A stretch of DNA of 64,000 nt, from assembly GCA_965237675.1 (NCBI GenBank), contig OZ250150.1, positions 3,552,001 through 3,616,000 on the forward strand. Reading direction: 5' to 3'. The position numbers and the translations under genes were made by a program. Origin of the DNA: Candidatus Latescibacterota bacterium (GTDB taxonomy: Bacteria; Latescibacterota; UBA2968; GCA-2709665). Below the pieces are notes generated by a model that saw nothing but the letters and a program-made list of their open reading frames with translations, was not told the origin of the DNA and did not search any database. Below are positions 15,500 through 60,319 of the stretch, piece by piece (positions within the stretch are counted from its first letter, which is position 1; the number at the start of each line of letters is the position of its first letter).

Positions 15500-15658
15500 G
15501 TGGCGAACGGCTACGGAACATCCGAACTATCGAGCGGGAAGACAGGCGCACGTATTGATGCATTGATGGAGGTGACGCATGAACTCCTCGCCCTGGAGGA
15601 CCGGGATGCGGAAAAGATCCCGGGTCTGGCGACGCTGCTTATGAAAGCACTATCGTAG
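15500..15658 (+). CDS. Small hypothetical protein (52 aa)
   Basis: GTG start after GAGGA; fills the gap between flanking same-strand genes. Confidence 0.4.
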   Translation: MANGYGTSELSSGKTGARIDALMEVTHELLALEDRDAEKIPGLATLLMKALS

Positions 15659-15665
15659 AGCGTAT

Positions 15666-17225
15666 ATGCAGTGTTTCTACCGACATTACCTCGCCCTTCG
15701 GAAGGAGATGGAAGCCTGGTTGTCGCAGAGCCGGAGGATGGACCCGCCGGGCCGGCACGGCGGGGGAGAGGATGAAGCGAACTATGCCCTGGCCTGGTTT
15801 CCGCACTTTCTGGTCACGGGCAGTTCAGCAGTTGTGGAACATTTTGAGCATCTCCGGGATCGCCTTGCGGGTTGGGTCCAACGGGAATGTCTGCACGGCT
15901 ACGAGCCGGAGGCCGAGGCGCATCATGGTACCGAACCGTTTCTGCTTTTCCTCCCGCGCTACCTGGGTCTTTTTCCGGAAGATCGGGTGGCAACGGGACT
16001 ACTCGCCGATGCGGCGGAACATATCGGGAACTGGGTCAAGGGGATTCCGGCGTGGTTCGACTGGGAGCGGAATCGGTTCTACGGATACCACATCGGAACC
16101 CGAACCGTGGGGCGGGATCCGGAGCACGCGGTGGAACTGGCGGAGCATTTTCGGTTCATTCATATCTCCCTGGCGGCTTTCCGTGTGCTGAACGACGAGC
16201 GGTATCTGGATTGGGCGTTGCGATACGGCCGGCGTCGCGCGGAGATGATCGTGGCAGCGCCGACAGGACCCGTGCCGGTGATGTGGGGGCCGGATGGCCA
16301 GCCGATCAGCGAAGGCGGTTACACGGAATCGCAGCGCAGGATGAGTGGCGCCAGCCATCATGTACGGGGGGATCCGTCCGTGGGCGTGGAGGTGCTTCTC
16401 GCCTCGGGCGCTGTCTACGCGCTGGGGGATCTGTACCTTCTTTCCGGGGAGCATGTATTTCGTGACGCGGCATTTCGGATCGTTGAGACGCTTGTCGACA
16501 TGCTACGTGACCCCTATGGCGATCCGGGCGCGGTTGCTGTCTCCTATTATCGTGGCACATTTGGCGATGATACCCTGGATGGCCGTATCCGTGAGATGGT
16601 TGTGCAGATCCCGGACGAGGAAGCCGGTGAACTCGTGTTGATGGTGCCCGAGATTCCGAGGATGGTCTTTTCCGGCGTCGGAAAACGGGCGGATATGGTG
16701 TACTGGGGTGTGCAGGCAGACGGCATGGAACTGGTTGCACCCACGCGCGAGCTCTGTACGGCCTCGTTGACGTTGGCCTACCAGATTACCGGCGATGTTT
16801 CTTTTGCATCGCGGGCGTTGAGGCAGGCGTCCAGAAAGTTACGGGTGGCGCGGCGCGTCTTGAGGGGAGGTCGGGAGCACGCGGACATGGGCGGGGCGGT
16901 CTGCTCCGTGGCGGCCGGCCACGGGCGAAATTGGGGTTCGGGAACGGTGACCGGATGTTACGGGCCTCTCTTGCTGGGTACCAGAGAACGCCTGAGCGCC
17001 GTGATCCCTGTGGTGGAGTTTCGCCGGTCGGACGGTGCGTACGGTTTGCCGGAACAGGTCGTTTCGCTGGTCATCCCGCCGGGGCCGGCGGAGGGGAGCG
17101 TTCGAATTCACAACGGCGGTGACACGGATGTAACCGTTTCCTGGAGGCAGCCGGAAGCGGCGTGGCAGGATGTTACGCTGCCGCCCGGCGGCGAGACAAA
17201 GGCGGTGCTGGAGGAGGATACGTGA
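15666..17225 (+). CDS. Hypothetical protein (519 aa), possibly an alpha/alpha-toroid enzyme
   Basis: Long ORF whose TGA overlaps the next ATG; helical repeats such as LNDERYLDWA and YQITGDVSF. Confidence 0.7.
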   Translation: MQCFYRHYLALRKEMEAWLSQSRRMDPPGRHGGGEDEANYALAWFPHFLVTGSSAVVEHFEHLRDRLAGWVQRECLHGYEPEAEAHHGTEPFLLFLPRYLGLFPEDRVATGLLADAAEHIGNWVKGIPAWFDWERNRFYGYHIGTRTVGRDPEHAVELAEHFRFIHISLAAFRVLNDERYLDWALRYGRRRAEMIVAAPTGPVPVMWGPDGQPISEGGYTESQRRMSGASHHVRGDPSVGVEVLLASGAVYALGDLYLLSGEHVFRDAAFRIVETLVDMLRDPYGDPGAVAVSYYRGTFGDDTLDGRIREMVVQIPDEEAGELVLMVPEIPRMVFSGVGKRADMVYWGVQADGMELVAPTRELCTASLTLAYQITGDVSFASRALRQASRKLRVARRVLRGGREHADMGGAVCSVAAGHGRNWGSGTVTGCYGPLLLGTRERLSAVIPVVEFRRSDGAYGLPEQVVSLVIPPGPAEGSVRIHNGGDTDVTVSWRQPEAAWQDVTLPPGGETKAVLEEDT

Positions 17226-49810: not shown

Positions 49811-50500
49811 GTGACACCACCTGACCCACATTACCACGGTCATCGGAAGCGCCTTCGCGAACGATTCGTCAAAAGCGGTTTCGAAGGATTCGCCGAACAC
49901 GAGCGCATTGAATTGTTGATGACTTTGGCGATTCCGCGCTCCGACGTGAAACGGCAGGCAAAGGCACTTCTCGAGCAATTTGGTAGCTTGCGAGGCGTCC
50001 TTGACGCCCCACTGGCCGAGCTGCAGTCAGTGGAAGGCATCGGCGAGGTCGCCGCGATCTCACTTAAGGTTATACGCGAAGCGGCGACACTCTACCTGCT
50101 TGAGACGTCGGAGGAAGCACTGGTTCTCAATGAACCCGAAAAGCTAAGCGATTTCTGGCGGATGCGGATCGGCCATCTCAAACACGAAGTGTTTGCGGTT
50201 GCGTACCTGGATTCTGCGCATCGGTTGCTGAACGACGGCGTCGAAATCCTCCAGGAGGGCACAATTGATAGGGCTGCGGTGTATCCGCGGCGCGTTGTGG
50301 AGGCCGCGCTCCAGCGCCAGGCCGCGGCGCTGGTGCTTGCGCACAACCATCCGAACGGCAACGTCGCGCCGAGCGAACAGGACAAGACGGTCACGCGGGC
50401 AATCACATTGGCTGCCGAAACCATCAGCCTTCGTGTCGTCGACCACCTGATCGTGTCCGCCGCCGACACATACAGCTTCAGGAAGGAGGGGCTGTTGTGA
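49811..50500 (+). CDS. radC: RadC/UPF0758 JAB-domain protein
   Basis: GHRKRLRERF, HhH VEGIGE, E..GTIDRAAVYPR and HNHPNG..PS..D..DHLIV. Confidence 0.93.
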   Translation: MTPPDPHYHGHRKRLRERFVKSGFEGFAEHERIELLMTLAIPRSDVKRQAKALLEQFGSLRGVLDAPLAELQSVEGIGEVAAISLKVIREAATLYLLETSEEALVLNEPEKLSDFWRMRIGHLKHEVFAVAYLDSAHRLLNDGVEILQEGTIDRAAVYPRRVVEAALQRQAAALVLAHNHPNGNVAPSEQDKTVTRAITLAAETISLRVVDHLIVSAADTYSFRKEGLL

Positions 50501-53361
50501 CCATTGCGCCTGCCATCGAGAGGCATTATCCGGAACTGGTGGAAAGCCAGCGTGAGGTCGTAGGCCATCTCGACGGCCCTTTGCTCGTGATTGCGGGGCC
50601 GGGATCCGGCAAAACTTTCAGCATTGTCCTGCGCGCATTGAATCTTCTATTACTGAACAAGGCCGAGCCGAAAGAAATAGTGCTCTGCACCTTTACCGAA
50701 AAGGCTGCATTCGAGATGCGGGACCGGCTGGCGGCGGCGGCCCGAAAAGTTCAGTACGGCGGCGACCTTTCGGAACTGACCGTTTCGACCATACACGGGT
50801 TCTGCGACCGCGTGCTTTCTCAGCACAGGCACCGGACGGATCTCGGGCACAACTACGAAACCTTAGACGAACTGACACAACTTCTCTTTATATTTGAGCA
50901 CTTCAATGAGATTGTTGGTCCGTCCGTCAATGGCCGGTTTCTCAATCACTGGACAACACGCTGGACTGCCATAGAGGGAGCACGCGGCTATTTTGACAAG
51001 ATCACGGAAGAACTGGTTGATCCTTGCCGTCTCACGGCTTCCGACGACCCTTTCGTTGCTGCTATCGGCACCGCGTATCAACGCTACGAGCAGGCCCTGT
51101 TAGCGGCCAACCGGGTCGATTTCGCCCACCTGCAACGGCACGTTTACGAATTACTCGAACAGAATGCGGACGCGGGGGCCGTCGCTCCGGACGTACATTA
51201 TCTGCTGGTAGATGAATACCAGGACACGAACTACATCCAGGAGCAGCTTCTCCTTAAATTGGCCAAACCCGGCAACAACCTGTGCGTCGTCGGAGACGAG
51301 GATCAGAGTATCTACCGCTTCAGGGGTGCGACCGTGCGCAACATTCTGGAGTTCGCGCAGCGTGTACCGGATTGCCGGATCGCCAGGTTAACAACCAACT
51401 ACCGTTCGAACCGCGCGATCGTGGAACGCTACGACCATTGGATGACCTCAAGCGATTGGTCCAACCTGGCCGGAGGATCGTTCCGTCACGACAAGACAAT
51501 CGTCGCAGACCCTCAAGGGCAGCACCCTGATTATCCGTCCGTAATCAGCATATGGGGCCGTGACCGACGAGATGAGGCCGACCGGTTTGCCGACTTGGTC
51601 GAGTTTCTTAAGGAGAACGAGGTCATAAAGGACTACAGCCAGGTTGCATTGCTCCTGCATAGTGTACGCTTGGGACAAAGCGGCCCTTATACGCAGGCGC
51701 TCGAGAGCAAGGGGATTCCAGCGTTCTGCCCTCGGGCACGCGTCTTTTTCGATATTCCCGAGATTCGCGATCTGGTCGCCTGCTTCGCCGTCCTGTTCGG
51801 CTGGTACGGCGACCGGCGTGGAGAACTCGCCGGCGCCCTCAGGAATCTGGCGAAGTACGTAGACGAGGCCATTGTAGAACTTAGTAAACGCTTCGCGTCA
51901 CCCCACCCGCTAGCCGGGGAGCTTCAGCGGTGGACCGACGAGATCGCCGCTCTTCAGGACGGCGAGACACTGGACCAGCGTCCGGCCGACTACTTCTACA
52001 GACTACTTGCGTTTGAACCCTTCAGGCAGGCCATTCAAAACGAAAACACCGCCCGCAACTTTGCTATTTTTTCCGAGCTTCTCAATGTCTTTCAAAGCTA
52101 CTATCACTATTCGGTCATTACTTACAGGAACCGCGAGTACATCCGCTTTCACTTTTTCAATAGCTTCTTGCGGTTTCTTTACGCTGGCGGCATCAACGAG
52201 TACGAGGATCCGGAACAGCGTTTCCCATGGGGACATGTTCAAGTAATGACCATCCATCAGGCAAAGGGGCTCGAGTTCCCGGTGGTCGTGGTCGGCTCAC
52301 TATCGACATCTCTAAGGAGTCCGAAGCAAATCGACCGAAATCTCGAACCCTTCTATCACCGTCCGCCTTTCGAGCCCGAGGACCGCATCACGCTCTTCGA
52401 CCGAATGCGTCTGCACTACGTTGCGTTTTCAAGGCCGCAGAAAATGCTCGTACTTACATCCGCCGAACAACCCAAAAACCACTTCGCATCTATCTGGCAG
52501 GGGCTCCCGCAATGGCCGTACGTCCCGAGGGAATTGCTCGCCGCCCAGTCCTTCGAGCCGCACGAACGCATGCCGGTCAAGAAGACGTACAGCTTCACCG
52601 GCGACCTTAAGGTTTACGAGACATGCCCGCGCCAATATCAATTCTTCCGCGAATACGATTTTACGCCGTCACGTTCCGCCGAAATGTATTTCGGACTGCT
52701 GGTCCATCAGACAATTGAGGAGATTCACAGATTCGCCCTGGACGGGCAACTCCATACGCTAGACGAGGAACGGATCCAGGGGTTGTTTGAAAGGACGTTT
52801 CGGTTTCTACATCTCTCCGGCAGGCGCCCCATCGGGGATAAAGCAAAAGAGTTGGCATTTACGCAGGTAATCAACTATTTTCGACAGAATCAGGACGCAA
52901 TGAATCGGATCATTGAAACAGAGGTGGACGTCTCGCTGGAGAAGGACCGGTACATCCTGACCGGAAAGGTGGACCTGTTGATCGGCGGTGACGGAAAGTT
53001 GGAACTGCTCGACTTTAAGACGTCGCCACGCCCGACGAACTCCTCGGAGCTTATCTCGGCATACGAACGGCAACTTTGCACCTATGCGCACATTCTGGAG
53101 CAGCGGCACGGAAAGCACGTTGACCGGCTGCTTCTATATTGGACTGCGGAGGAACAAAAGGACCAAGCGCTCATGGTCCTACCGTATCGCCCTGAATCCG
53201 TGGAAAACGCGGGCCGGCACTTCGACGAGACTGTTAACCGAATTCAGACAGGCCAGTTCGCGGTCAAAAGGCCACCCGAGGCGAAAATCTGCCAGGAGTG
53301 CGATCTGCGGATGCTGTGCCATTCGGAAGGCGTTATCGGACGGGCCCAGATGGCCAATTGA
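50497..53361 (+). CDS. UvrD/PcrA-type SF1 helicase fused to Cas4/AddB-like PD-(D/E)XK nuclease
   Basis: AGPGSGKT, DEYQD, GDEDQSIYRFRGA, NYRS, MTIHQAKGLEF, YVAFSR; C-terminal CPRQY..GKVD..DFKT..QL..Y..CQECDLRMLC. GTG overlaps the radC stop. Confidence 0.9.
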   Translation: MTIAPAIERHYPELVESQREVVGHLDGPLLVIAGPGSGKTFSIVLRALNLLLLNKAEPKEIVLCTFTEKAAFEMRDRLAAAARKVQYGGDLSELTVSTIHGFCDRVLSQHRHRTDLGHNYETLDELTQLLFIFEHFNEIVGPSVNGRFLNHWTTRWTAIEGARGYFDKITEELVDPCRLTASDDPFVAAIGTAYQRYEQALLAANRVDFAHLQRHVYELLEQNADAGAVAPDVHYLLVDEYQDTNYIQEQLLLKLAKPGNNLCVVGDEDQSIYRFRGATVRNILEFAQRVPDCRIARLTTNYRSNRAIVERYDHWMTSSDWSNLAGGSFRHDKTIVADPQGQHPDYPSVISIWGRDRRDEADRFADLVEFLKENEVIKDYSQVALLLHSVRLGQSGPYTQALESKGIPAFCPRARVFFDIPEIRDLVACFAVLFGWYGDRRGELAGALRNLAKYVDEAIVELSKRFASPHPLAGELQRWTDEIAALQDGETLDQRPADYFYRLLAFEPFRQAIQNENTARNFAIFSELLNVFQSYYHYSVITYRNREYIRFHFFNSFLRFLYAGGINEYEDPEQRFPWGHVQVMTIHQAKGLEFPVVVVGSLSTSLRSPKQIDRNLEPFYHRPPFEPEDRITLFDRMRLHYVAFSRPQKMLVLTSAEQPKNHFASIWQGLPQWPYVPRELLAAQSFEPHERMPVKKTYSFTGDLKVYETCPRQYQFFREYDFTPSRSAEMYFGLLVHQTIEEIHRFALDGQLHTLDEERIQGLFERTFRFLHLSGRRPIGDKAKELAFTQVINYFRQNQDAMNRIIETEVDVSLEKDRYILTGKVDLLIGGDGKLELLDFKTSPRPTNSSELISAYERQLCTYAHILEQRHGKHVDRLLLYWTAEEQKDQALMVLPYRPESVENAGRHFDETVNRIQTGQFAVKRPPEAKICQECDLRMLCHSEGVIGRAQMAN

Positions 53362-53427
53362 CGAGGGACGAAACAGATTTCCGAACCATAGGGCTTGGTC
53401 ACTTTAGCGCATAAGAGGAACACTGTT

Positions 53428-55335
53428 ATGGCAAAGATTGACATTACGAGGACCGAGTTGGTCTGGCCCGGCAAGTACAACGAGGATGGAACCCTCAGGG
53501 AAGTTCAGCGGGTAAATCTTCCGTTCCAGGTGATCGAGACTGTCAACGAGAGCCGTGCTACACGTGAAGCAAAGAAGGACGTCGTTCAGGGATCGCTATT
53601 CGAAATCTACGAAGGTAAGGAGGGAGACACATTTGAGGATGGGTGGAAGAACAAGCTTATCTGGGGCGACAATCTGTTGGTAATGGGGTCGCTGTTGGAA
53701 AAGTTCGCGGGAAAAGTCGACTTGATTTATATCGATCCGCCGTTTGCGACTGGAGCGGATTTCTCGTTTACAACGGAAATCGGCGAAAAGGGTCTGGAGG
53801 TCTCGAAAGAACAGTCTCTCATAGAAGAGAAGGCCTACCGCGATACTTGGGGACGAGGAATTGATTCGTACGCATCCATGATCTACGAACGCCTCTGTTT
53901 GATGCATGATCTGTTGGCGCCATCCGGACTAATTTATGTACACTGCGATTACCGCGTTAACTATCTAATGCGGTCGATGCTTGACGAAATCTTCGGCAGA
54001 GAAAACCTCCGCAATGAAATCGTGTGGTGCTACAGGGGTGGGGGTACACCGCTTAATGACTTTGCTGAGAAACATGATGTAATCCTAAGGTATAGTAGAG
54101 GATCCAACTATTATTTCGACGTAGATCCAGTACGGATTCCCTACTCAGAGGCAAGCACCGAACGGTTGAAAAACAAGGCAAACGTATTCCGCGGTGACAA
54201 AGTCTATCGCAACTACGAGCCACACGAGCTTGGCAAGCATCCCGAGGATTGGTGGACGATACAGCCAATCATGCCGTCGGAGAAACAAGAACGGAGCGTA
54301 TGCTACTATCCGACGCAGAAACCGGTGGAACTATTGCAAAGGATTGTCGAATCGTCGTCACCGGCTAACGGTCTCGTGCTCGACGTGTTTTGCGGAAGCG
54401 GTTCGACGCTTGTTGCCGCAGAGGGACTACGAGTTCAGCGTGGTGATCAGGCCCAAAAGTCTCTCGGGTTCGCGAAACACAGGCGGAGGTGGATAGGATG
54501 CGATCTAGGGCGATTTGCGGTGCATACTTCAAGGAAGAGGCTTCTTGAAATCAAAGACTGCAGGCCGTTCGATATGTTGAACCTTGGGAAGTACGAGCGC
54601 CAGTACTGGCAAGGCGTGACATTTGGCGGTAGTACGAACAAGCTTATCGCTGAACAGACTGTGTATGAGTACCTCGCCTTCATCCTCAAGTTGTACGGCG
54701 CGCAGCCTATCTCCGGACTGCAACATCTTCACGGCAAAATAGGTAAGGCCATGATACACATCGGCGCAGTGGATGCGCCGGTCACCATTGATGAGATTGG
54801 CGACGCAGTGGCAGAATGCGCCAAGTTGAATCAGCATGAACTACACGTCTTGGGCTGGGAGTGGGAAATGGGTCTTCAGAATCTCGTCGTTCCCGAAGCG
54901 CAAAAAAAGGATGTGAAACTCACACTTCTGCAGATTCCCCGCGAAGTTATGGAAAAGCAAGCCGTGGACCGGGACGACATCCGGTTCTTTGAACTCGCAT
55001 ATTTAAACGCGATTGTCGTTAGGTCAATGAAGCGGAGTATACAGGTGAAGCTTAAAGATTTCGTCATACCCAACTCGGAACTGATTCCTAACGAAGTGCG
55101 TGAGAAGATTGGGAAATGGTCTGACTACATTGACTATTGGGCCGTGGATTGGGACTTTCGGAACGATACGTTTATGCAGGGTTGGGTGACTTACCGTACC
55201 CGCAAAGATCGAACGCTCACACTCATTTCCGACTCGCACGTCTACGAGAGGCCCGACAATTACCGCTTGCTGGTCAAGGTAATTGACATCTTCGGCAACG
55301 ACACGTCGCAGGCCCTTGAAATTGAGGCGAATTAG
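53428..55335 (+). CDS. mod: Type III restriction-modification methyltransferase (Mod)
   Basis: LIYIDPPF precedes YPTQKP and DVFCGSGST (beta-class order); C-terminal KVIDIFGND. Confidence 0.88.
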   Translation: MAKIDITRTELVWPGKYNEDGTLREVQRVNLPFQVIETVNESRATREAKKDVVQGSLFEIYEGKEGDTFEDGWKNKLIWGDNLLVMGSLLEKFAGKVDLIYIDPPFATGADFSFTTEIGEKGLEVSKEQSLIEEKAYRDTWGRGIDSYASMIYERLCLMHDLLAPSGLIYVHCDYRVNYLMRSMLDEIFGRENLRNEIVWCYRGGGTPLNDFAEKHDVILRYSRGSNYYFDVDPVRIPYSEASTERLKNKANVFRGDKVYRNYEPHELGKHPEDWWTIQPIMPSEKQERSVCYYPTQKPVELLQRIVESSSPANGLVLDVFCGSGSTLVAAEGLRVQRGDQAQKSLGFAKHRRRWIGCDLGRFAVHTSRKRLLEIKDCRPFDMLNLGKYERQYWQGVTFGGSTNKLIAEQTVYEYLAFILKLYGAQPISGLQHLHGKIGKAMIHIGAVDAPVTIDEIGDAVAECAKLNQHELHVLGWEWEMGLQNLVVPEAQKKDVKLTLLQIPREVMEKQAVDRDDIRFFELAYLNAIVVRSMKRSIQVKLKDFVIPNSELIPNEVREKIGKWSDYIDYWAVDWDFRNDTFMQGWVTYRTRKDRTLTLISDSHVYERPDNYRLLVKVIDIFGNDTSQALEIEAN

Positions 55336-55337
55336 GC

Positions 55338-58181
55338 ATGGCTAAAGCCGTCATTAACTACGATAGGGATCTACCAGAGGTGCAAGATCGCCGTCCCTGG
55401 GAAAAGCCAACATCCCATCTCGTCAAAGACGACGATGCGCCGACGGGTTGGCTTGAGGATAGCTCCGGTCGCCGTCCGAGCAATCTCCTGCTCGTGCCGA
55501 AAATCCGCAAAGCCGTCGATAACTGGCGAGACAGTGGGTACGCGGGCGCCTCGGAAGTTACCCTGCGCCTGTTTGAGTATTGGTTCGAGGAGGATCACAG
55601 CGTCCCGGGATTTGACGTCCCATTTCGGTACTACTTCTGTCAACGGGAAGCCATAGATACGCTGGCTTGGATGTTGGAAATCGCTGGCCAGCGCGACGCA
55701 AAGGACCTAATTGAAGCCCACGGCTCGATCTATCAAGAAGACCTTCTCTTGAAGAACATCGAGTTTCAGACCACAATGGACGGTACCAGACAGCTACGCA
55801 GATATGTGCCGGAACTGGAGCGAGAAGGATTACAGGACTTGCCGCCCAAGGACCTGTGTCGCTTCGCCTTCAAAATGGCCACGGGTTCGGGCAAGACCTG
55901 GGTGATGGCGATGGCGGTCGTCTGGGCACGCTACCACAAGCAGCGCGTCCCCGGATCGGAACTCTCCTCGAACTTCCTCATCGTGGCGCCCAATGTCATT
56001 GTCTACCAGCGGCTGGAGAAGGACTTTGCAAACAACCGTATATTCCACGAATTGCCGTTGATCCCGCCTGAATGGAAAGGCACTTTCTCTCAAAAGGTGA
56101 TCCTTCGTGGAGATGCCGCCGAGCCGGATCTGGATGGAAATTTGTTCCTCACCAATATTCATCAACTCTACGAATCTCGCGCCGAGGAGTGGACAGCGGA
56201 GAACGCCGTTGAAGCCCTTTTGGGCAAGAAACCCGCACAAGACTTGGCGGCATCCGGTCAGCGTTCAGTGCTGGAACGCGTGAAGTCACTGAAAGACCTC
56301 ATCGTGCTCAATGACGAGGCACACCATGTGCACAAAGAGGATCTGGCGTGGAGTCGATCGCTGCTGGCAGTTCACAACGCGCTGCCAATCGGTCTTAGCA
56401 TGTGGCTCGACTTCTCGGCCACGCCCAAAGACCAGAACGGGATGTACTTCCCATGGACGGTCGTGGATTATCCGTTGGCGCAGGCTGTAGAGGATAAAAT
56501 CGTCAAGGCGCCGCTCATCGTAGAGCGGGAGGATGACTCCAATCAGCCGACCGAAGATCCCGTCGGCGTCACAAAGTCGAACATCGCGGAAAAATATGGA
56601 TACTGGCTAAGGGCCGCCGTACAGCGGTGGAAGGAACACTGGCGAATTTATAGGAAGCTCAACACCCGGCCAGTGCTTTTTGTCATGGTGGAGAAGAACG
56701 TCTATGCTGACGAGTTAGGTGCGTTTCTGTGGAAGACGGAGGAATTCGGCTTCAAGCAATCCGAGGTACTCATTATCCACACGGACAACACGGGGGAAGT
56801 TCGAAGTGGAGATATTGAGAAAGCCCGGCAAGCGGCACGGGACATCGATACGGCTGAAAGCAAGATAAAAGTCATTGTCAGCGTAATGATGTTGCGCGAG
56901 GGGTGGGACGTGCGTAACGTGACGGTAGTGCTCGGGCTGCGTCCTTTCACCGCAAGAGCTGAGATACTCCCAGAACAGGTGATTGGTCGTGGATTGCGCC
57001 TGATGACACAGGTAAGTCCTGATAAGACACAGACCCTTGAAGTGCTTGGAACGCGGAACCTGCTCAACGTTCTACGCGACCAACTCGAAACCGAAGGGGT
57101 CGGGGTGCTGAGCACTAAGGAAGACCCGCCGTTACCGGTTGTGATCGCACCTGTAAAGGAACGGCTAAAGTACGACGTTACAATTCCGATCACTAAGCCC
57201 AGTCTAACGCATGATTTTCGCAGGCTGTCCACCGTGGATGTGTCTTCGCTTGAATCGATTTACGAGCGGCAAGATCTGTCAGAGGCGTATCGGATACGTT
57301 TGAAGATGGAATTCGCAACTACCGAGACCGAGGTCCATCAGGCCGACATTGTTGTGGAACCCCGCCCCGCACAGGAACTGCTGGCGACGATCACTAAAAG
57401 GACCACTGAGCGTGCAAACCTGACGAATCGTTTTGCGGAAATGTATCCGATCGTGCAGACCTATGTCATGAATCGGTGTTTTGGGCGAAAAATCGAAATG
57501 GACGATGAAAACATCCGCTCCCATCTGGGTAGGCTCGAACTGCAGGAGGGTATTGCCGGATACATGGCCCGCGAGATCGCGGCAATCGCGGTCGAGCGGC
57601 GTGCGGTTGAGTTCGAAAACGAGCATTTTCGTCTCTCCCTGACGAAGCCATTCAGTTGGCGCCGAAATTTGCCGCCGTTGAAAGCGATAAAGACGATTTT
57701 CAACTATGTGGCCACCTACAACGACTTTGAGCGCATTTTTGCGGAGTTTTTGGACAGCGCCAGTGATGTCATACGCTTTGCGGCACTCGGCACAACGGAA
57801 CAGGGCAATTCTGCCACGACATTCCGCATCGATTATCTGAAACGAAGCGGGGCTATCGGATTCTATTACCCTGACTGGGTCGTCGTCCAAGTTGCCGAAG
57901 GCGGCGAAGTGAACTGGGTCGTCGAAACCAAAGGCCGAGTTTGGGAAGGGACTGATGAGAAGGATAAAGCAGCGCGGGAGTGGTGCAAGCGGGTAAGCGA
58001 ATCCACCGGAAAGCCCTGGAAGTACACCCGCATCAACCAGTCCGAGTTTTCCGACGAGTGCCCGACGTTCGCCGCGTTCCTCTGGAGACGAGCGCTTAAA
58101 ACATCGAGTGAACGCCAGAGGGAGATGCGGCCGGTGACGCAAGAAGAAATTCGCAAATGGAAAGAGGAGGGCCGGCGCTGA
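55338..58181 (+). CDS. res: Type III restriction endonuclease (Res) with atypical C-terminal tail
   Basis: MATGSGKT, NDEAHH, SATP, LREGWDV, EQVIGRGLR; nuclease YYPDW..VETKG. Confidence 0.88.
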   Translation: MAKAVINYDRDLPEVQDRRPWEKPTSHLVKDDDAPTGWLEDSSGRRPSNLLLVPKIRKAVDNWRDSGYAGASEVTLRLFEYWFEEDHSVPGFDVPFRYYFCQREAIDTLAWMLEIAGQRDAKDLIEAHGSIYQEDLLLKNIEFQTTMDGTRQLRRYVPELEREGLQDLPPKDLCRFAFKMATGSGKTWVMAMAVVWARYHKQRVPGSELSSNFLIVAPNVIVYQRLEKDFANNRIFHELPLIPPEWKGTFSQKVILRGDAAEPDLDGNLFLTNIHQLYESRAEEWTAENAVEALLGKKPAQDLAASGQRSVLERVKSLKDLIVLNDEAHHVHKEDLAWSRSLLAVHNALPIGLSMWLDFSATPKDQNGMYFPWTVVDYPLAQAVEDKIVKAPLIVEREDDSNQPTEDPVGVTKSNIAEKYGYWLRAAVQRWKEHWRIYRKLNTRPVLFVMVEKNVYADELGAFLWKTEEFGFKQSEVLIIHTDNTGEVRSGDIEKARQAARDIDTAESKIKVIVSVMMLREGWDVRNVTVVLGLRPFTARAEILPEQVIGRGLRLMTQVSPDKTQTLEVLGTRNLLNVLRDQLETEGVGVLSTKEDPPLPVVIAPVKERLKYDVTIPITKPSLTHDFRRLSTVDVSSLESIYERQDLSEAYRIRLKMEFATTETEVHQADIVVEPRPAQELLATITKRTTERANLTNRFAEMYPIVQTYVMNRCFGRKIEMDDENIRSHLGRLELQEGIAGYMAREIAAIAVERRAVEFENEHFRLSLTKPFSWRRNLPPLKAIKTIFNYVATYNDFERIFAEFLDSASDVIRFAALGTTEQGNSATTFRIDYLKRSGAIGFYYPDWVVVQVAEGGEVNWVVETKGRVWEGTDEKDKAAREWCKRVSESTGKPWKYTRINQSEFSDECPTFAAFLWRRALKTSSERQREMRPVTQEEIRKWKEEGRR

Positions 58182-58297
58182 TGGCCACGGTAATCGACGC
58201 GTCGGTGATGGGGGCCCAACTACTGTCCGACGAGGCACATAGTGACTTTGCCCGAGCCCTGCTGGAACAACTGGATACCGAAGAGCGCATTGCCCCC
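58181..58297 (+). pseudogene. Truncated VapC/PIN-domain toxin (N-terminal 39 codons)
   Basis: MATVIDASV...LLSDE...ARALLEQL...IAP is a typical PIN start; TGATG overlap with res; the expected E..N helix is absent after codon 39. Confidence 0.7.
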
Positions 58298-58359
58298 TAC
58301 ACGCTTCAATGTCCGATAGGACGATCCGAAGTTTACTTTCGCCTCTGGAACGAGCCTAG

Positions 58360-59993
58360 GAGTCTGCGCCGCAGGAAAATTCATTTCAATGGACAGGTGT
58401 GTGTAGGTATAATGGGTCGTGCAGTTCAGAAATGTCAAGCAGTAAAGAGGTTGTGAGTTATGTCAACGGAGGGAGCTATCGATGCCGACGACCTTTCGTC
58501 CGTATCACCCGGACCAGATATTGCTGTTGGCGCCTGATCTTCGGGAGTGGGTGCCTGAAGGGCATCTGTCGCACCAGGTGAGCGATCTGGTGGATTCACT
58601 GGATCTGGGGTCGTTCTACGCGCCCTATGAAGGCGATGGGCGTCGCAACGCACCTTATGAGCCATCGATGATGTTGAAGGTATTGATATATGGGTACGCG
58701 ACGGGTGTGTATTCGTCTCGTGGGATGGCTCGGAAGCTGGAGGAGGACGTGGCGTTTCGTATGTTGGCGGCAGGCAATTTTCCACAACACCGGACGATCT
58801 GCGAGTTTCGTCGTCGTCACCTAAAAGATTTCGGGTGTTTGTTCGTGGAGGTGGTTGGTGTGGCGAGGGAGATGGGTCTGGTACGTTTCGGGACGCTCTC
58901 TTTAGACGGCACGAAGGTACGAGCGAAGGCGAGCAAGCGCAAGGCCATGAGTTACCAGCGGATGTTGAAGGAACAGGCTCGTCTGGAGAAAGAGATCGGG
59001 GCGTTGCTGGCGGGGGCTGTGTCGATTGATGCCGAGGAGGACGCGCGTTACGGCGCGGATGTTCGTGGCGACGAGTTGCCGGTCGAGTTGCAGCGCAGGC
59101 AGGTTCGTCTGGCGGCGATCAAGGCGGCTCGGGAGCGTCTAAAAGCATCGCAACGGGCGGCCGACGATGCGCGCGGGCGCAAGCCCGGTCAGGATCGCAA
59201 CCCGAAGGGCGGGCGGCCTTACAAAAGAGCCTATGGCGAGCCCGACCCGAAGGCTCAGAGCAACTTCACGGACCCCGAGTCTCGGATCATGAAGACGAGC
59301 GCGGAGGGTTTCCAGCAGTGCTACAACGCCCAGACGGTTGTGGACGCCGAGCGTCAGATCATCGTGGCTGCGCATCTGGGGTCCGCGGCCACCGATCAGG
59401 GCTTTATGCTCCCTTTGCTGGATGGGGTGCAAGAGACATTCGGGGTCACGCCCGGCGCGGTTCTGGCGGATGCGGGATACTGCAACGAGGAGGACTTGGC
59501 CACGCTTGAGGAACGTGGCATCGATGGTTACGTGGCGCTGGGGCGGGAGGGCAAGGAAAGGGTGGACGTCGATTCGGAGACGCTTCCGGCGACGCATCGC
59601 ATGGGCGAAAAACTGGCGAGCACGGAAGGTCGGGGCCTGTATGCGAAGCGCAAGTGGCTCTCGGAGGCGCCCAACGGATGGATCAAGGAGATATTGGGCT
59701 TCCGACGCTTCAGCTTCCGGGGTCTGGAAAAGGTGCGTGCCGAGTGGGACCTGGTCTGCCTGGCGTTGAACGCCAGGCGGATGGCAGCGTTGACGATGTG
59801 TTGAGGCATGAGTTAGGGCGTCCTGTCCTTGTGGACTCGACATACGGGAAGCCAACCTCCCTAATATCTCGCCCTCAACACGCCTGACTGCCACGATGAC
59901 CGCGCCCGAAACTCATCATACCACTCCCAACATAACACCGAACCCAACACAGACACATCTCGCCCTTTGCAAAAACTCCTGCGGCGCAGACTC
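58360..59993 (+). mobile_element. IS1182-family insertion sequence (1634 bp)
   Basis: Perfect 17-bp IRs GAGTCTGCGCCGCAGGA (58360-76) / TCCTGCGGCGCAGACTC (59977-93); CTAG duplication at 58356-59 and 59994-97. Confidence 0.93.
58482..59804 (+). CDS. IS1182-family transposase
   Basis: LIYGYATG..SSR, LDGTKVRA, TDPESRIM, YNAQ, LADAGY and RK..SE..GWIK..GFRRF. Confidence 0.93.
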   Translation: MPTTFRPYHPDQILLLAPDLREWVPEGHLSHQVSDLVDSLDLGSFYAPYEGDGRRNAPYEPSMMLKVLIYGYATGVYSSRGMARKLEEDVAFRMLAAGNFPQHRTICEFRRRHLKDFGCLFVEVVGVAREMGLVRFGTLSLDGTKVRAKASKRKAMSYQRMLKEQARLEKEIGALLAGAVSIDAEEDARYGADVRGDELPVELQRRQVRLAAIKAARERLKASQRAADDARGRKPGQDRNPKGGRPYKRAYGEPDPKAQSNFTDPESRIMKTSAEGFQQCYNAQTVVDAERQIIVAAHLGSAATDQGFMLPLLDGVQETFGVTPGAVLADAGYCNEEDLATLEERGIDGYVALGREGKERVDVDSETLPATHRMGEKLASTEGRGLYAKRKWLSEAPNGWIKEILGFRRFSFRGLEKVRAEWDLVCLALNARRMAALTMC

Positions 59994-60107
59994 CTAGCCT
60001 GATTCATTCATGAATTGTCACGGATTGCAGTTTCAGGAAGCAGAAACAGCTTCCGGGTGATTAGAGAAACGGAAGAAAAACCTGTCTGTGACGGATTTGG
60101 CGGACGA

Positions 60108-60319
60108 GACCTAACCCCTACCCCCCTTCCTGAAAGGAAGGGGGAAATGCGATCGGTTGATGAACGGTCAGATTGGCTGAAGCCATTTCGATTGATGAAA
60201 AACTCCAGGCGAAATATTGTGATGGGTCCGCTCAATCAGAGCTCATTTAAAACCGTGTTGGCACAACGCCTGGTTCAACTCCCCCTTTCCTTGCAGGAAG
60301 GGGGCCGGGGGGAGAGGTC
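60108..60319. repeat. Inverted pair of hairpin REP-like units (MITE/REPIN-like)
   Basis: GACCTAACCCCTACCCCCCTTCCTGAAAGGAAGGGGGA (60108-45) resembles the reverse complement of 60279-60319; each has a CTTCC/GGAAG-type hairpin. Confidence 0.65.

Follow-up and report, generated by a model that had tools for sequence, protein, structure and literature searches.

A type III-like restriction subunit with an antitoxin-like C-terminal tail, coupled to a VapC/PIN toxin gene

Introduction

Restriction–modification (RM), CRISPR and Dnd loci carry toxin genes, apparently without typical antitoxins; in the passages of Makarova et al. (2012) cited here, immune proteins were proposed as the inhibitors of these toxins, with PrrC–EcoprrI as the single worked example (PMC3506569). 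Fused toxin–antitoxin (TA) proteins are also on record: the cited section of Gerdes (2024) covers fused HicAB, with reference to CapRel and EzeT (PMC10865869). The locus described here was compared with these systems. It consists of res, the gene for the restriction subunit (Res) of a type III-like RM system, and of the beginning of a vapC toxin gene that overlaps the res stop codon. It lies in a 64,000 nt stretch of DNA from Candidatus Latescibacterota bacterium (contig OZ250150.1, positions 3,552,001 to 3,616,000 of the forward strand); this whole stretch is called the window below, and coordinates refer to it.

The Res subunit has probably taken over the toxin-binding C-terminal module of a Phd/YefM-type VapB antitoxin, with the cognate, coupled VapC held by this tail. 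A first-pass annotation of the same DNA had suggested that the restriction enzyme could hold the RNase toxin and release it under phage attack. The structural part of that suggestion is supported by the present analysis and proved broader than was seen there; the functional part, release by a guard, is one of at least two readings.

Results

The Res tail and its junction with vapC

The junction comprises the following features:

55338 to 58181, + strand: res, intact open reading frame (ORF) of 947 aa with a superfamily 2 (SF2) ATPase, a C-terminal nuclease, a linker and an antitoxin-like tail
57660 to 58052, + strand: Res nuclease domain, residues ~775-905; PADLOC REase_III C-terminal match over residues 775-876
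58053 to 58115, + strand: variable linker helix, residues 906-926, from the alignment; ratio of nonsynonymous to synonymous substitution (dN/dS) 0.24
58116 to 58178, + strand: antitoxin-like motif SERQREMRPVTQEEIRKWKEEGRR, residues 927-947; predicted VapC-binding module
58164 to 58170, + strand: Shine–Dalgarno-like GAGGAGG for vapC, within the EEG codons of Res, 10 nt ahead of the ATG
58179 to 58183, + strand: TGATG stop/start overlap, in which the res TGA (58179-58181) shares a base with the vapC ATG (58181-58183)
58181 to 58297, + strand: vapC remnant, the first 39 codons of a PIN toxin (MATVIDASV...), with D6 as the sole catalytic residue left

The ATPase core of Res was matched by Pfam ResIII (residues 161-364, E=1e-16); the Walker A and DEAH motifs (GSGKT and NDEAHH) are visible in the translation, as is a PD...ETK motif in the C-terminal nuclease region. 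The PADLOC REase_III matches of Res (E=4.5e-18) were weaker than the match of the neighbouring Mod methyltransferase. For the nuclease, Pfam RE_endonuc gave 17.7 bits (E=0.003) against a cut-off of 23.4, and the C-terminal match to PADLOC REase_III had E=3e-10. With 284 bits against NCBIfam restr_BPTD_3080 (cut-off 800), Res is related to this family, not an equivalog member of it. The NCBIfam restriction-endonuclease profile was consumed (957 of 970 positions) at Res residue 900, and tail-less homologues are 919-926 aa long and end inside the linker helix; some 25-30 residues of Res are therefore an addition.

The final 31 aa of Res (58086-58178) are RRALKTSSERQREMRPVTQEEIRKWKEEGRR, exactly as quoted in the first-pass annotation, and the continuation past the nuclease domain, the overlap with a PIN-like ORF and the GAGGAGG sequence were all confirmed on the sequence. 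The TGATG overlap suggests that translation of vapC is coupled to that of res. Pfam and NCBIfam scans of Res gave no Phd, RHH or AbrB domain, the antitoxin-like part being a C-terminal module only; queried alone, the 40-aa tail of the window matched no Pfam or NCBIfam family, and neither it nor the vapC piece was found to have a paralogue elsewhere in the genome. Compared feature by feature with VapBC modules, the antitoxin coding sequence coupled upstream of the toxin corresponds to the last 20-30 codons of res; the four acidic PIN residues are incomplete in the window and complete in the orthologues from the related genomes G011 and G001.

An antisense ORF of 319 aa (57279-58238, minus strand) spans the 3' end of res, the tail and the start of vapC. 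It is also open in relatives and is probably a by-product of codon usage.

Likeness of the tail to antitoxin C-termini

Species-representative genomes were searched with the intact VapC of G011, which gave 80 loci. The tail motif was present in the frame ending at vapC in 78 of these, a count that is partly circular for the 49 loci used as training rows of the profile described below; one of the two exceptions lies at a contig edge and the other has an unclear frame. In most of the 80 loci the upstream frame ends 1 nt into vapC. A full-length Res-like frame with the tail precedes vapC in seven loci (L026, L027, L030, L031, L032, L048 and L054), all with the gene order Mod-Res-VapC (7/7), and Res remnants precede it in two more (L028 and L029), so that Res or its remnants account for nine of the 78. 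The Res-linked loci span metagenome-assembled genomes labelled Gemmatimonadota, Latescibacterota, Gammaproteobacteria, 'Enterobacteriaceae' and Marinacidobacterium.

In the remaining loci small upstream proteins end in ...RTGKITLEEILSARHEGHKY or near variants. The five that were tested are Phd/YefM antitoxins (Pfam E 1e-7 to 3e-15; NCBIfam phd_fam), and one other type of small protein gave a weak FitA-like RHH match (L088 and L091). Proteins of ~50-60 aa without a recognisable DNA-binding domain also carry the tail (L033, L042-L045, L052 and L038 (Dehalococcoidia)). As it is found on Res, Phd/YefM, RHH-like and ~50-aa forms, the tail behaves as a C-terminal module shuffled among N-termini.

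A profile was built from 49 distinct C-termini of stand-alone antitoxins preceding homologous VapCs, with zero Res sequences among them. Among the 105,860 six-frame ORFs of the genome, the Res frame was ranked first by this profile (E=0.059). All ten Res tails were recognised when each was scored alone (Z=1), with E-values from 4.6e-10 to 1.1e-5; the window tail reached 20.6 bits (E=1.5e-8 at Z=1), a score matched by none of 20,000 shuffles of its 45 aa (best shuffle 13.2). The resemblance to Phd/VapB antitoxin ends, pointed out in the first-pass annotation, held on searching. We conclude that the Res tail shares ancestry with the toxin-binding ends of the Phd/YefM, and of some RHH, antitoxins encoded ahead of this VapC subfamily.

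A separate antitoxin gene was likewise missing, as had been noted for the window: no conserved small ORF follows vapC in the ten Res-linked loci, and an upstream one is ruled out by the gene overlap. A word-based search for short proteins sharing the tail, a coarse method for such a motif, returned eight matches, all of them Res remnants, and no free antitoxin. Among the loci examined (the relatives and the 80 VapC loci), none had an intact VapC without a tail or antitoxin.

In a VapC tree of 63 rows made by a quick method, the ten Res-linked VapCs clustered, with alphaproteobacterial Phd–VapC pairs (tails ...EIREAKELGRA) as nearest neighbours. The Res-linked toxins may share one origin.

Distribution among Res homologues and association with PIN genes

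Residues 700-947 of Res matched 1325 database proteins, of which the best 120 were examined. By the profile, 112 of these best 120 carry the tail; the other eight comprise four tail-less proteins of 919-926 aa, one truncated protein, one borderline case and two with another tail. The last two (P0114 and P0119) are full-length homologues with a third kind of C-terminal extension, ...LTLEEQAQRQAAGRNLEPDVDD, which matches no NCBIfam family.

A sample unbiased with respect to the tail was obtained by scanning metagenome contigs with Res residues 700-913 only, which gave 80 loci, 79 of them scorable; these loci are related, and the counts are not independent trials. The tail was found in 3/79, and in each case a VapC begins at the res stop codon (E 1e-47 to 1e-51). 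A further three loci, nearly identical to one another, were borderline (8e-4; end ...ITLEELVNE) and had no PIN gene. The antitoxin-like tail was absent from 72/79, and no PIN neighbour was found beside tail-less Res in this sample. At least 450 nt of downstream sequence was available for 63 loci, and in 54 an ORF of 50 aa or more begins in the first 150 nt; 40 of the 54 were scanned with Pfam, after omission of 14 duplicates of other loci. PIN domains were identified in 4/40 downstream ORFs, each behind a Res with an antitoxin-like tail. Two ORFs downstream of tail-less Res matched Pfam GmrSD_N.

The fourth PIN belongs to L107, whose Res ends in a different tail, ...GSAKGSIFMADDFDAPLSDFNAYMP. 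This tail matches positions 33-65 of the 65 positions of NCBIfam TA_VapB (E=4e-12), that is, its C-terminal half, and Pfam DUF2281. Through an ATGA overlap it leads into a PIN gene from a different subfamily (L107:2927-3456), itself interrupted by a stop codon and a frameshift. L107 is interpreted as an independent second graft of a different VapB-type tail onto the Res family.

Tail-bearing Res was followed by intact vapC in relatives, G001 and G011 among them.

Selection on the tail

Rates were calculated from 28 pairs of eight close Res genes. The motif had a dN/dS of 0.072, close to the 0.066 of the nuclease domain, whereas the linker reached 0.24; the proportion of synonymous differences (pS) was near saturation in all three (0.67-0.73; motif 0.73). 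The tail motif is under purifying selection. The first-pass annotation had cautioned that the EEG codons double as the vapC Shine–Dalgarno sequence. The overlap is real, and orthologues keep the EEG residues through other codons; since the synonymous sites of the motif are as changed as those elsewhere (pS 0.73) while dN/dS is only 0.07, the ribosome-binding site does not explain its conservation.

Structure and complex prediction

An AlphaFold2 (AF2) model of Res residues 758-947, made from a 62-row alignment, had a mean pLDDT of 79. The alpha/beta core of the nuclease (pLDDT 80-95) ends near residue 903, and the tail lies outside it as two helices, residues 911-929 and a short one at 935-944. 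Foldseek comparison of this model with the PDB gave only weak PD-(D/E)xK matches (TnsA, BspD6I, AddB and Hjc; E at least 0.007) and nothing at E <= 0.001. The N-terminal domain of a stand-alone antitoxin resembled P1 Phd.

Complex prediction was run with the VapC of G011 and the last 50 residues of its Res (60-row alignments each). The median score was 0.36 (runs 0.36, 0.25 and 0.88), and the best of three controls scored 0.00; the runs shared at least 41% of contacts, and the partner pLDDT was at least 49. The mark used was reached by 58 of 80 solved complexes and by 2 of 110 mismatched pairs; at scores of 0.60 or below it was reached by just 7 of those 80 solved complexes and by both passing mismatches. 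The prediction gives weak support to a VapC–tail complex.

The vapC remnant and the adjoining insertion sequence

To the right of the vapC remnant the following features were delimited:

58298 to 58355, no strand: unique stretch between the vapC break and the insertion sequence (IS), with no second copy in the genome and no match in the relatives' loci
~58356 to 59997, + strand: IS1182-family element, transposase 58482 to 59804; NCBIfam transpos_IS1182 361 bits (cut-off 270)
59994 to 60060, no strand: short interspersed repeat abutting the right end of the IS, more than 30 genome copies of 80-100% identity

Only codons 1-39 of the window vapC aligned (tblastn) to the intact 144-aa orthologue of G011 (85% identity). 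Homology to relatives at the DNA level stops at 58296; the frame stays open to 58456, with unrelated residues past codon 39. The break after 39 codons, ~60 bp before the IS1182 element, had been noted before and is accurate: 57 unique nt separate the two. The ends of the IS were set by two other full copies in the genome (96-97% identity) and by terminal inverted repeats of 21-29 nt. Neither the 57 nt before the IS nor the 650 nt after it matched anything in the relatives' loci. D6, E45 and D101 are invariant in the VapC family, and D119 is present in at least 90% of members; as the window vapC retains D6 only, this toxin copy is dead. The cut at codon 39 leaves the RM part and an idle tail in the window, and the interest of the locus therefore lies in the widespread architecture to which it points and not in a function of its own.

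The span 57600-58385 is bridged by metagenome contigs without any difference from the window in three runs (X1, X2 and X5) from two studies, and the source sample may be among these. A fourth run contains contigs that follow the window, with 23-25 differences, as far as 58293 and then diverge.

Near the IS lie the ~66-bp repeat (59994-60060) and 30-nt C/G-rich inverted repeats (60115-60144 and 60282-60311). Their appearance suggests repetitive extragenic palindromic (REP) or miniature inverted-repeat transposable element (MITE)-like repeats.

The island and its relatives

Three genes precede res in the window:

49811 to 50500, + strand: RadC-like JAB protein, first gene of the conserved island; Pfam RadC E=9.5e-37
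50497 to 53361, + strand: UvrD-like helicase fused to a PD-(D/E)xK (Cas4-like) nuclease; Pfam UvrD-helicase E=6e-66, PDDEXK_1 E=6e-26
53395 to 55335, + strand: Mod methyltransferase (type III), 646 aa; Pfam N6_N4_Mtase E=1.7e-42, PADLOC MTase_III E=5e-125

The gap between mod and res is 2 nt, and the order Mod-Res was found in 7/7 related genome loci. The helicase–nuclease also gave PADLOC matches to GajB-type helicases.

In a survey of 61 genomes of the same class, 11 had a Res match, and three (G001, G011 and G057) a full-length Res that aligned through the tail. The block RadC-UvrD/nuclease-Mod-Res-VapC is syntenic in the window and in these three genomes, of which G057 belongs to another family. 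The RadC-like gene adjoins the helicase gene in all three (81-85% identity), and the helicase–nuclease is 84-85% identical; overall, RadC, helicase and Res are 76-85% identical to the relatives (Res of G057, 79%). For G057 the block shows 77-85% identity, except for Mod, which is lower at ~56-70%. The helicase–nuclease may belong to the RM–VapC system. In L128 the UvrD-like gene sits after vapC instead.

G001 and G011 have a 947-aa Res with the tail, the TGATG overlap and an intact 144-aa VapC (Pfam PIN E=1.4e-14). The overlap is common to G001, G011, G057 and G010; vapC is frameshifted in G057. In four congeners (G002, G009, G004 and G010) only Res residues ~775-947 are left, with the tail intact; their vapC is interrupted by two TAG stops in G002 and by a frameshift in G010, and it is missing from G009 and G004. 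At these loci (L188-L191) the island is deleted from its border to Res codon ~775, and an open frame keeps the Res C-terminus. The four remnants share the left neighbour and junction and may thus go back to one deletion event. Eight metagenome proteins (P0001-P0008) likewise consist of the Res C-terminus with the tail (100-167 aa, one of 498 aa).

The island segment of G011 is flanked by a duplicated 3' end of a GFO/IDH/MocA oxidoreductase gene, with the five-gene block at one end; this suggests attachment-site repeats of an integrated element. Duplicates covering the last 30-77 codons of the oxidoreductase gene were seen at L187:18749-18856, L191:10012-10098 and L188:15042-15131 and 15652-15882, marking an island border or a deletion scar. 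The left border of the island in the window is not marked by any such oxidoreductase duplicate, and no tRNA gene lies nearby. A search of a plasmid collection gave nothing beyond helicase proteins of 25-27% identity. The gene after vapC in G011 (L026:4750-5940), starting MNAIDRSLELLTLKQVF...FAIPDFQRGYSWEE, is presumably DUF262/GmrSD-like.

Discussion

Proposed mechanism

From the anatomy of the junction, the homology and selection on the tail and its co-occurrence with PIN genes, we infer binding, neutralisation and release of the toxin as follows. An antitoxin module would have replaced the original C-terminal end of Res. VapC, a PIN RNase, would be synthesised in step with Res through translational coupling, dock on the Res tail and be kept inactive there, as VapCs are on the homologous tails of stand-alone antitoxins. 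The terminal EG(R/H) might extend into the PIN active site, in the manner of the FitA arginine in FitAB. Active VapC would be freed only if Res or its tail were no longer made, were degraded or were lost, and RNA cleavage and growth arrest would thereby be linked to the fate of the restriction enzyme.

Several points weigh against this interpretation. The genome-wide E-value of the tail is just 0.059, which reflects the shortness of the motif; the final codons of Res also provide the vapC ribosome-binding site; and the complex prediction passed weakly. This VapC subfamily is not represented among solved complexes, the nearest chains, PAE0151 (E=7e-18) and PAE2754, having been solved alone; the prediction is therefore unlikely to reproduce a known structure. 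In the classical model the antitoxin is labile, and a large, presumably stable enzyme is an odd antitoxin by that standard. Finally, the tail persists where VapC is broken or gone, in 6 of 16 Res-linked loci (the window, G057, G002, G010, G009 and G004). Such persistence fits the usual toxin-first decay of TA modules, and it would also fit a tail that serves Res itself.

Addiction, guard or another role

Retention of VapC by the Res tail could serve two ends, which are not exclusive and use the same mechanism. One is addiction: loss of res would mean loss of the antitoxin and poisoning of the cell, and post-segregational killing would stabilise res and the island. This is quite conceivable, if short of an even chance. 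The five-gene block looks mobile and occurs in another family (G057), and the G011 island is flanked by the duplicated oxidoreductase 3' end. In the four congeners that lost the island the deletion stops inside res at codon ~775 and spares the 3' end that encodes the tail; the toxin decays while the tail persists, also in the eight short proteins from metagenomes, and in the loci examined intact VapC was always accompanied by a tail or antitoxin. However, the congener remnants share a left junction and may reflect a single event, so that independent events are few; remnants without vapC keep the tail too, and present selection is not evident from them. Killing on loss also needs a Res that is shorter-lived than VapC.

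The other end is that proposed by the first-pass annotation, a guard of the PrrC kind, in which a phage factor that degrades, inhibits or displaces Res would free VapC and abort the infection. We regard this as possible but doubtful. It is in keeping with the position of the toxin-holding module on the RM enzyme itself and with an island that contains other defence-type genes (RadC and the UvrD–nuclease). Immunity components were predicted to be reversible inhibitors of associated toxins, as stated in the cited passage of Makarova et al. (2012; PMC3506569), and PrrC and PARIS are named as RM guardians in the corresponding section of a 2025 EcoSal review (PMC12707154). Yet no phage, anti-restriction protein or protease was implicated as a trigger in this analysis, addiction explains the anatomy equally well, and the frequent decay of vapC (6/16 loci) suggests weak or episodic selection. 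In its widest form, put forward tentatively, the proposal is that Res is the antitoxin of an abortive-infection RNase, that phage interference of several kinds (proteolysis, an inhibitor, synthesis shut-off or DNA engagement) frees VapC, and that the trick is general, other VapB-type tails having been grafted independently. If so, many 'solo' toxins beside large defence proteins may be held by cryptic tails of 20-30 residues that domain searches miss.

Two explanations dispense with inhibition by Res. In one, VapC recruited by the tail would stay active and work as an accessory nuclease of the RM complex, perhaps cleaving phage transcripts close to restricted DNA. Co-occurrence and coupling would be expected here too, and a DNA-tracking enzyme would localise the RNase; the tail is, however, homologous to the antitoxin ends of two-gene Phd–VapC modules, whose known role is inhibition, and nothing suggests that bound VapC stays active. 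We consider such a role improbable, and about as improbable a function of the tail within Res, in assembly with Mod, regulation or stability, its antitoxin likeness being a relic or convergence and VapC being neutralised otherwise or not at all. The short, charged motif and its retention where vapC is dead or absent would agree with the latter. Against this, tail-less Res of the same family is common (72/79 scorable metagenome loci) and has no PIN neighbour throughout that sample, a second Res lineage (L107) pairs a different VapB tail with a different PIN, and no other antitoxin was found in the ten Res-linked loci.

An accidental in-frame fusion, which the first-pass annotation had allowed for, or an assembly artefact of this genome is ruled out by the tail in 112 of the best 120 homologues, the tail–PIN co-occurrence and the purifying selection. 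The window-identical contigs across 57600-58385, some of them perhaps from the source sample, speak against it as well.

Comparison with known systems

The graft of an antitoxin module onto Res is widespread (112 of the best 120 homologues) and has arisen at least twice with different tails. No account of a restriction subunit fused to an antitoxin module turned up in a full-text literature search, although the supplementary tables of Makarova 2009/2012 might list such fusions. The locus represents a concrete, sequence-readable form of the proposed coupling of immunity and suicide and makes this idea directly testable. The Res tail offers one explanation for many 'solo' VapC genes, and profiles of antitoxin C-termini, searched against the ends of large defence proteins, suggest themselves as a strategy.

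The closest relatives are the Phd/YefM–VapC modules (e.g. L041, L073 and L035). Their VapCs are of the same subfamily (40-50% identity, invariant D6/E45/D101), and they share the C-terminal motif ...(I/V)(T/S)xEE(I/L)xxx(R/K)xEG(R/H).. and the stop/start overlap with vapC. Their ~45-residue DNA-binding and dimerisation domain (PF02604) is, however, replaced here by ~920 residues of restriction enzyme, an antitoxin that is therefore not expected to bind an operator or to regulate its own expression.

PrrC–EcoprrI and RloC also place an RNase toxin inside an RM operon, where physical association with the RM enzyme is held responsible for its silencing, according to the cited parts of both sources (PMC12707154, PMC3506569). 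PrrC differs in being an ABC-ATPase with an anticodon nuclease in a type I (Ic) RM system, in place of a 144-aa PIN protein in a type III system; it has no antitoxin-derived motif, and its trigger is known (T4 Stp, dTTP). The Res–VapC pair may function in the manner of PrrC without belonging to the PrrC family.

In the fused or cis-acting antitoxins CapRelSJ46, EzeT and fused HicAB, as covered by the cited section (PMC10865869), the neutralising element likewise resides in a larger multidomain protein. There, toxin and antitoxin form one polypeptide, whereas here the module sits on a separate defence enzyme and the toxin is separate. PezAT with Hachiman is similar in that a type II TA system is genetically joined to an innate immune system; in the excerpt cited, a complete two-gene TA beside the system represses its expression (2025; PMC13064477), whereas no free antitoxin is present here. 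The architecture is thus a variant both of type II TA and of RM with an accessory toxin.

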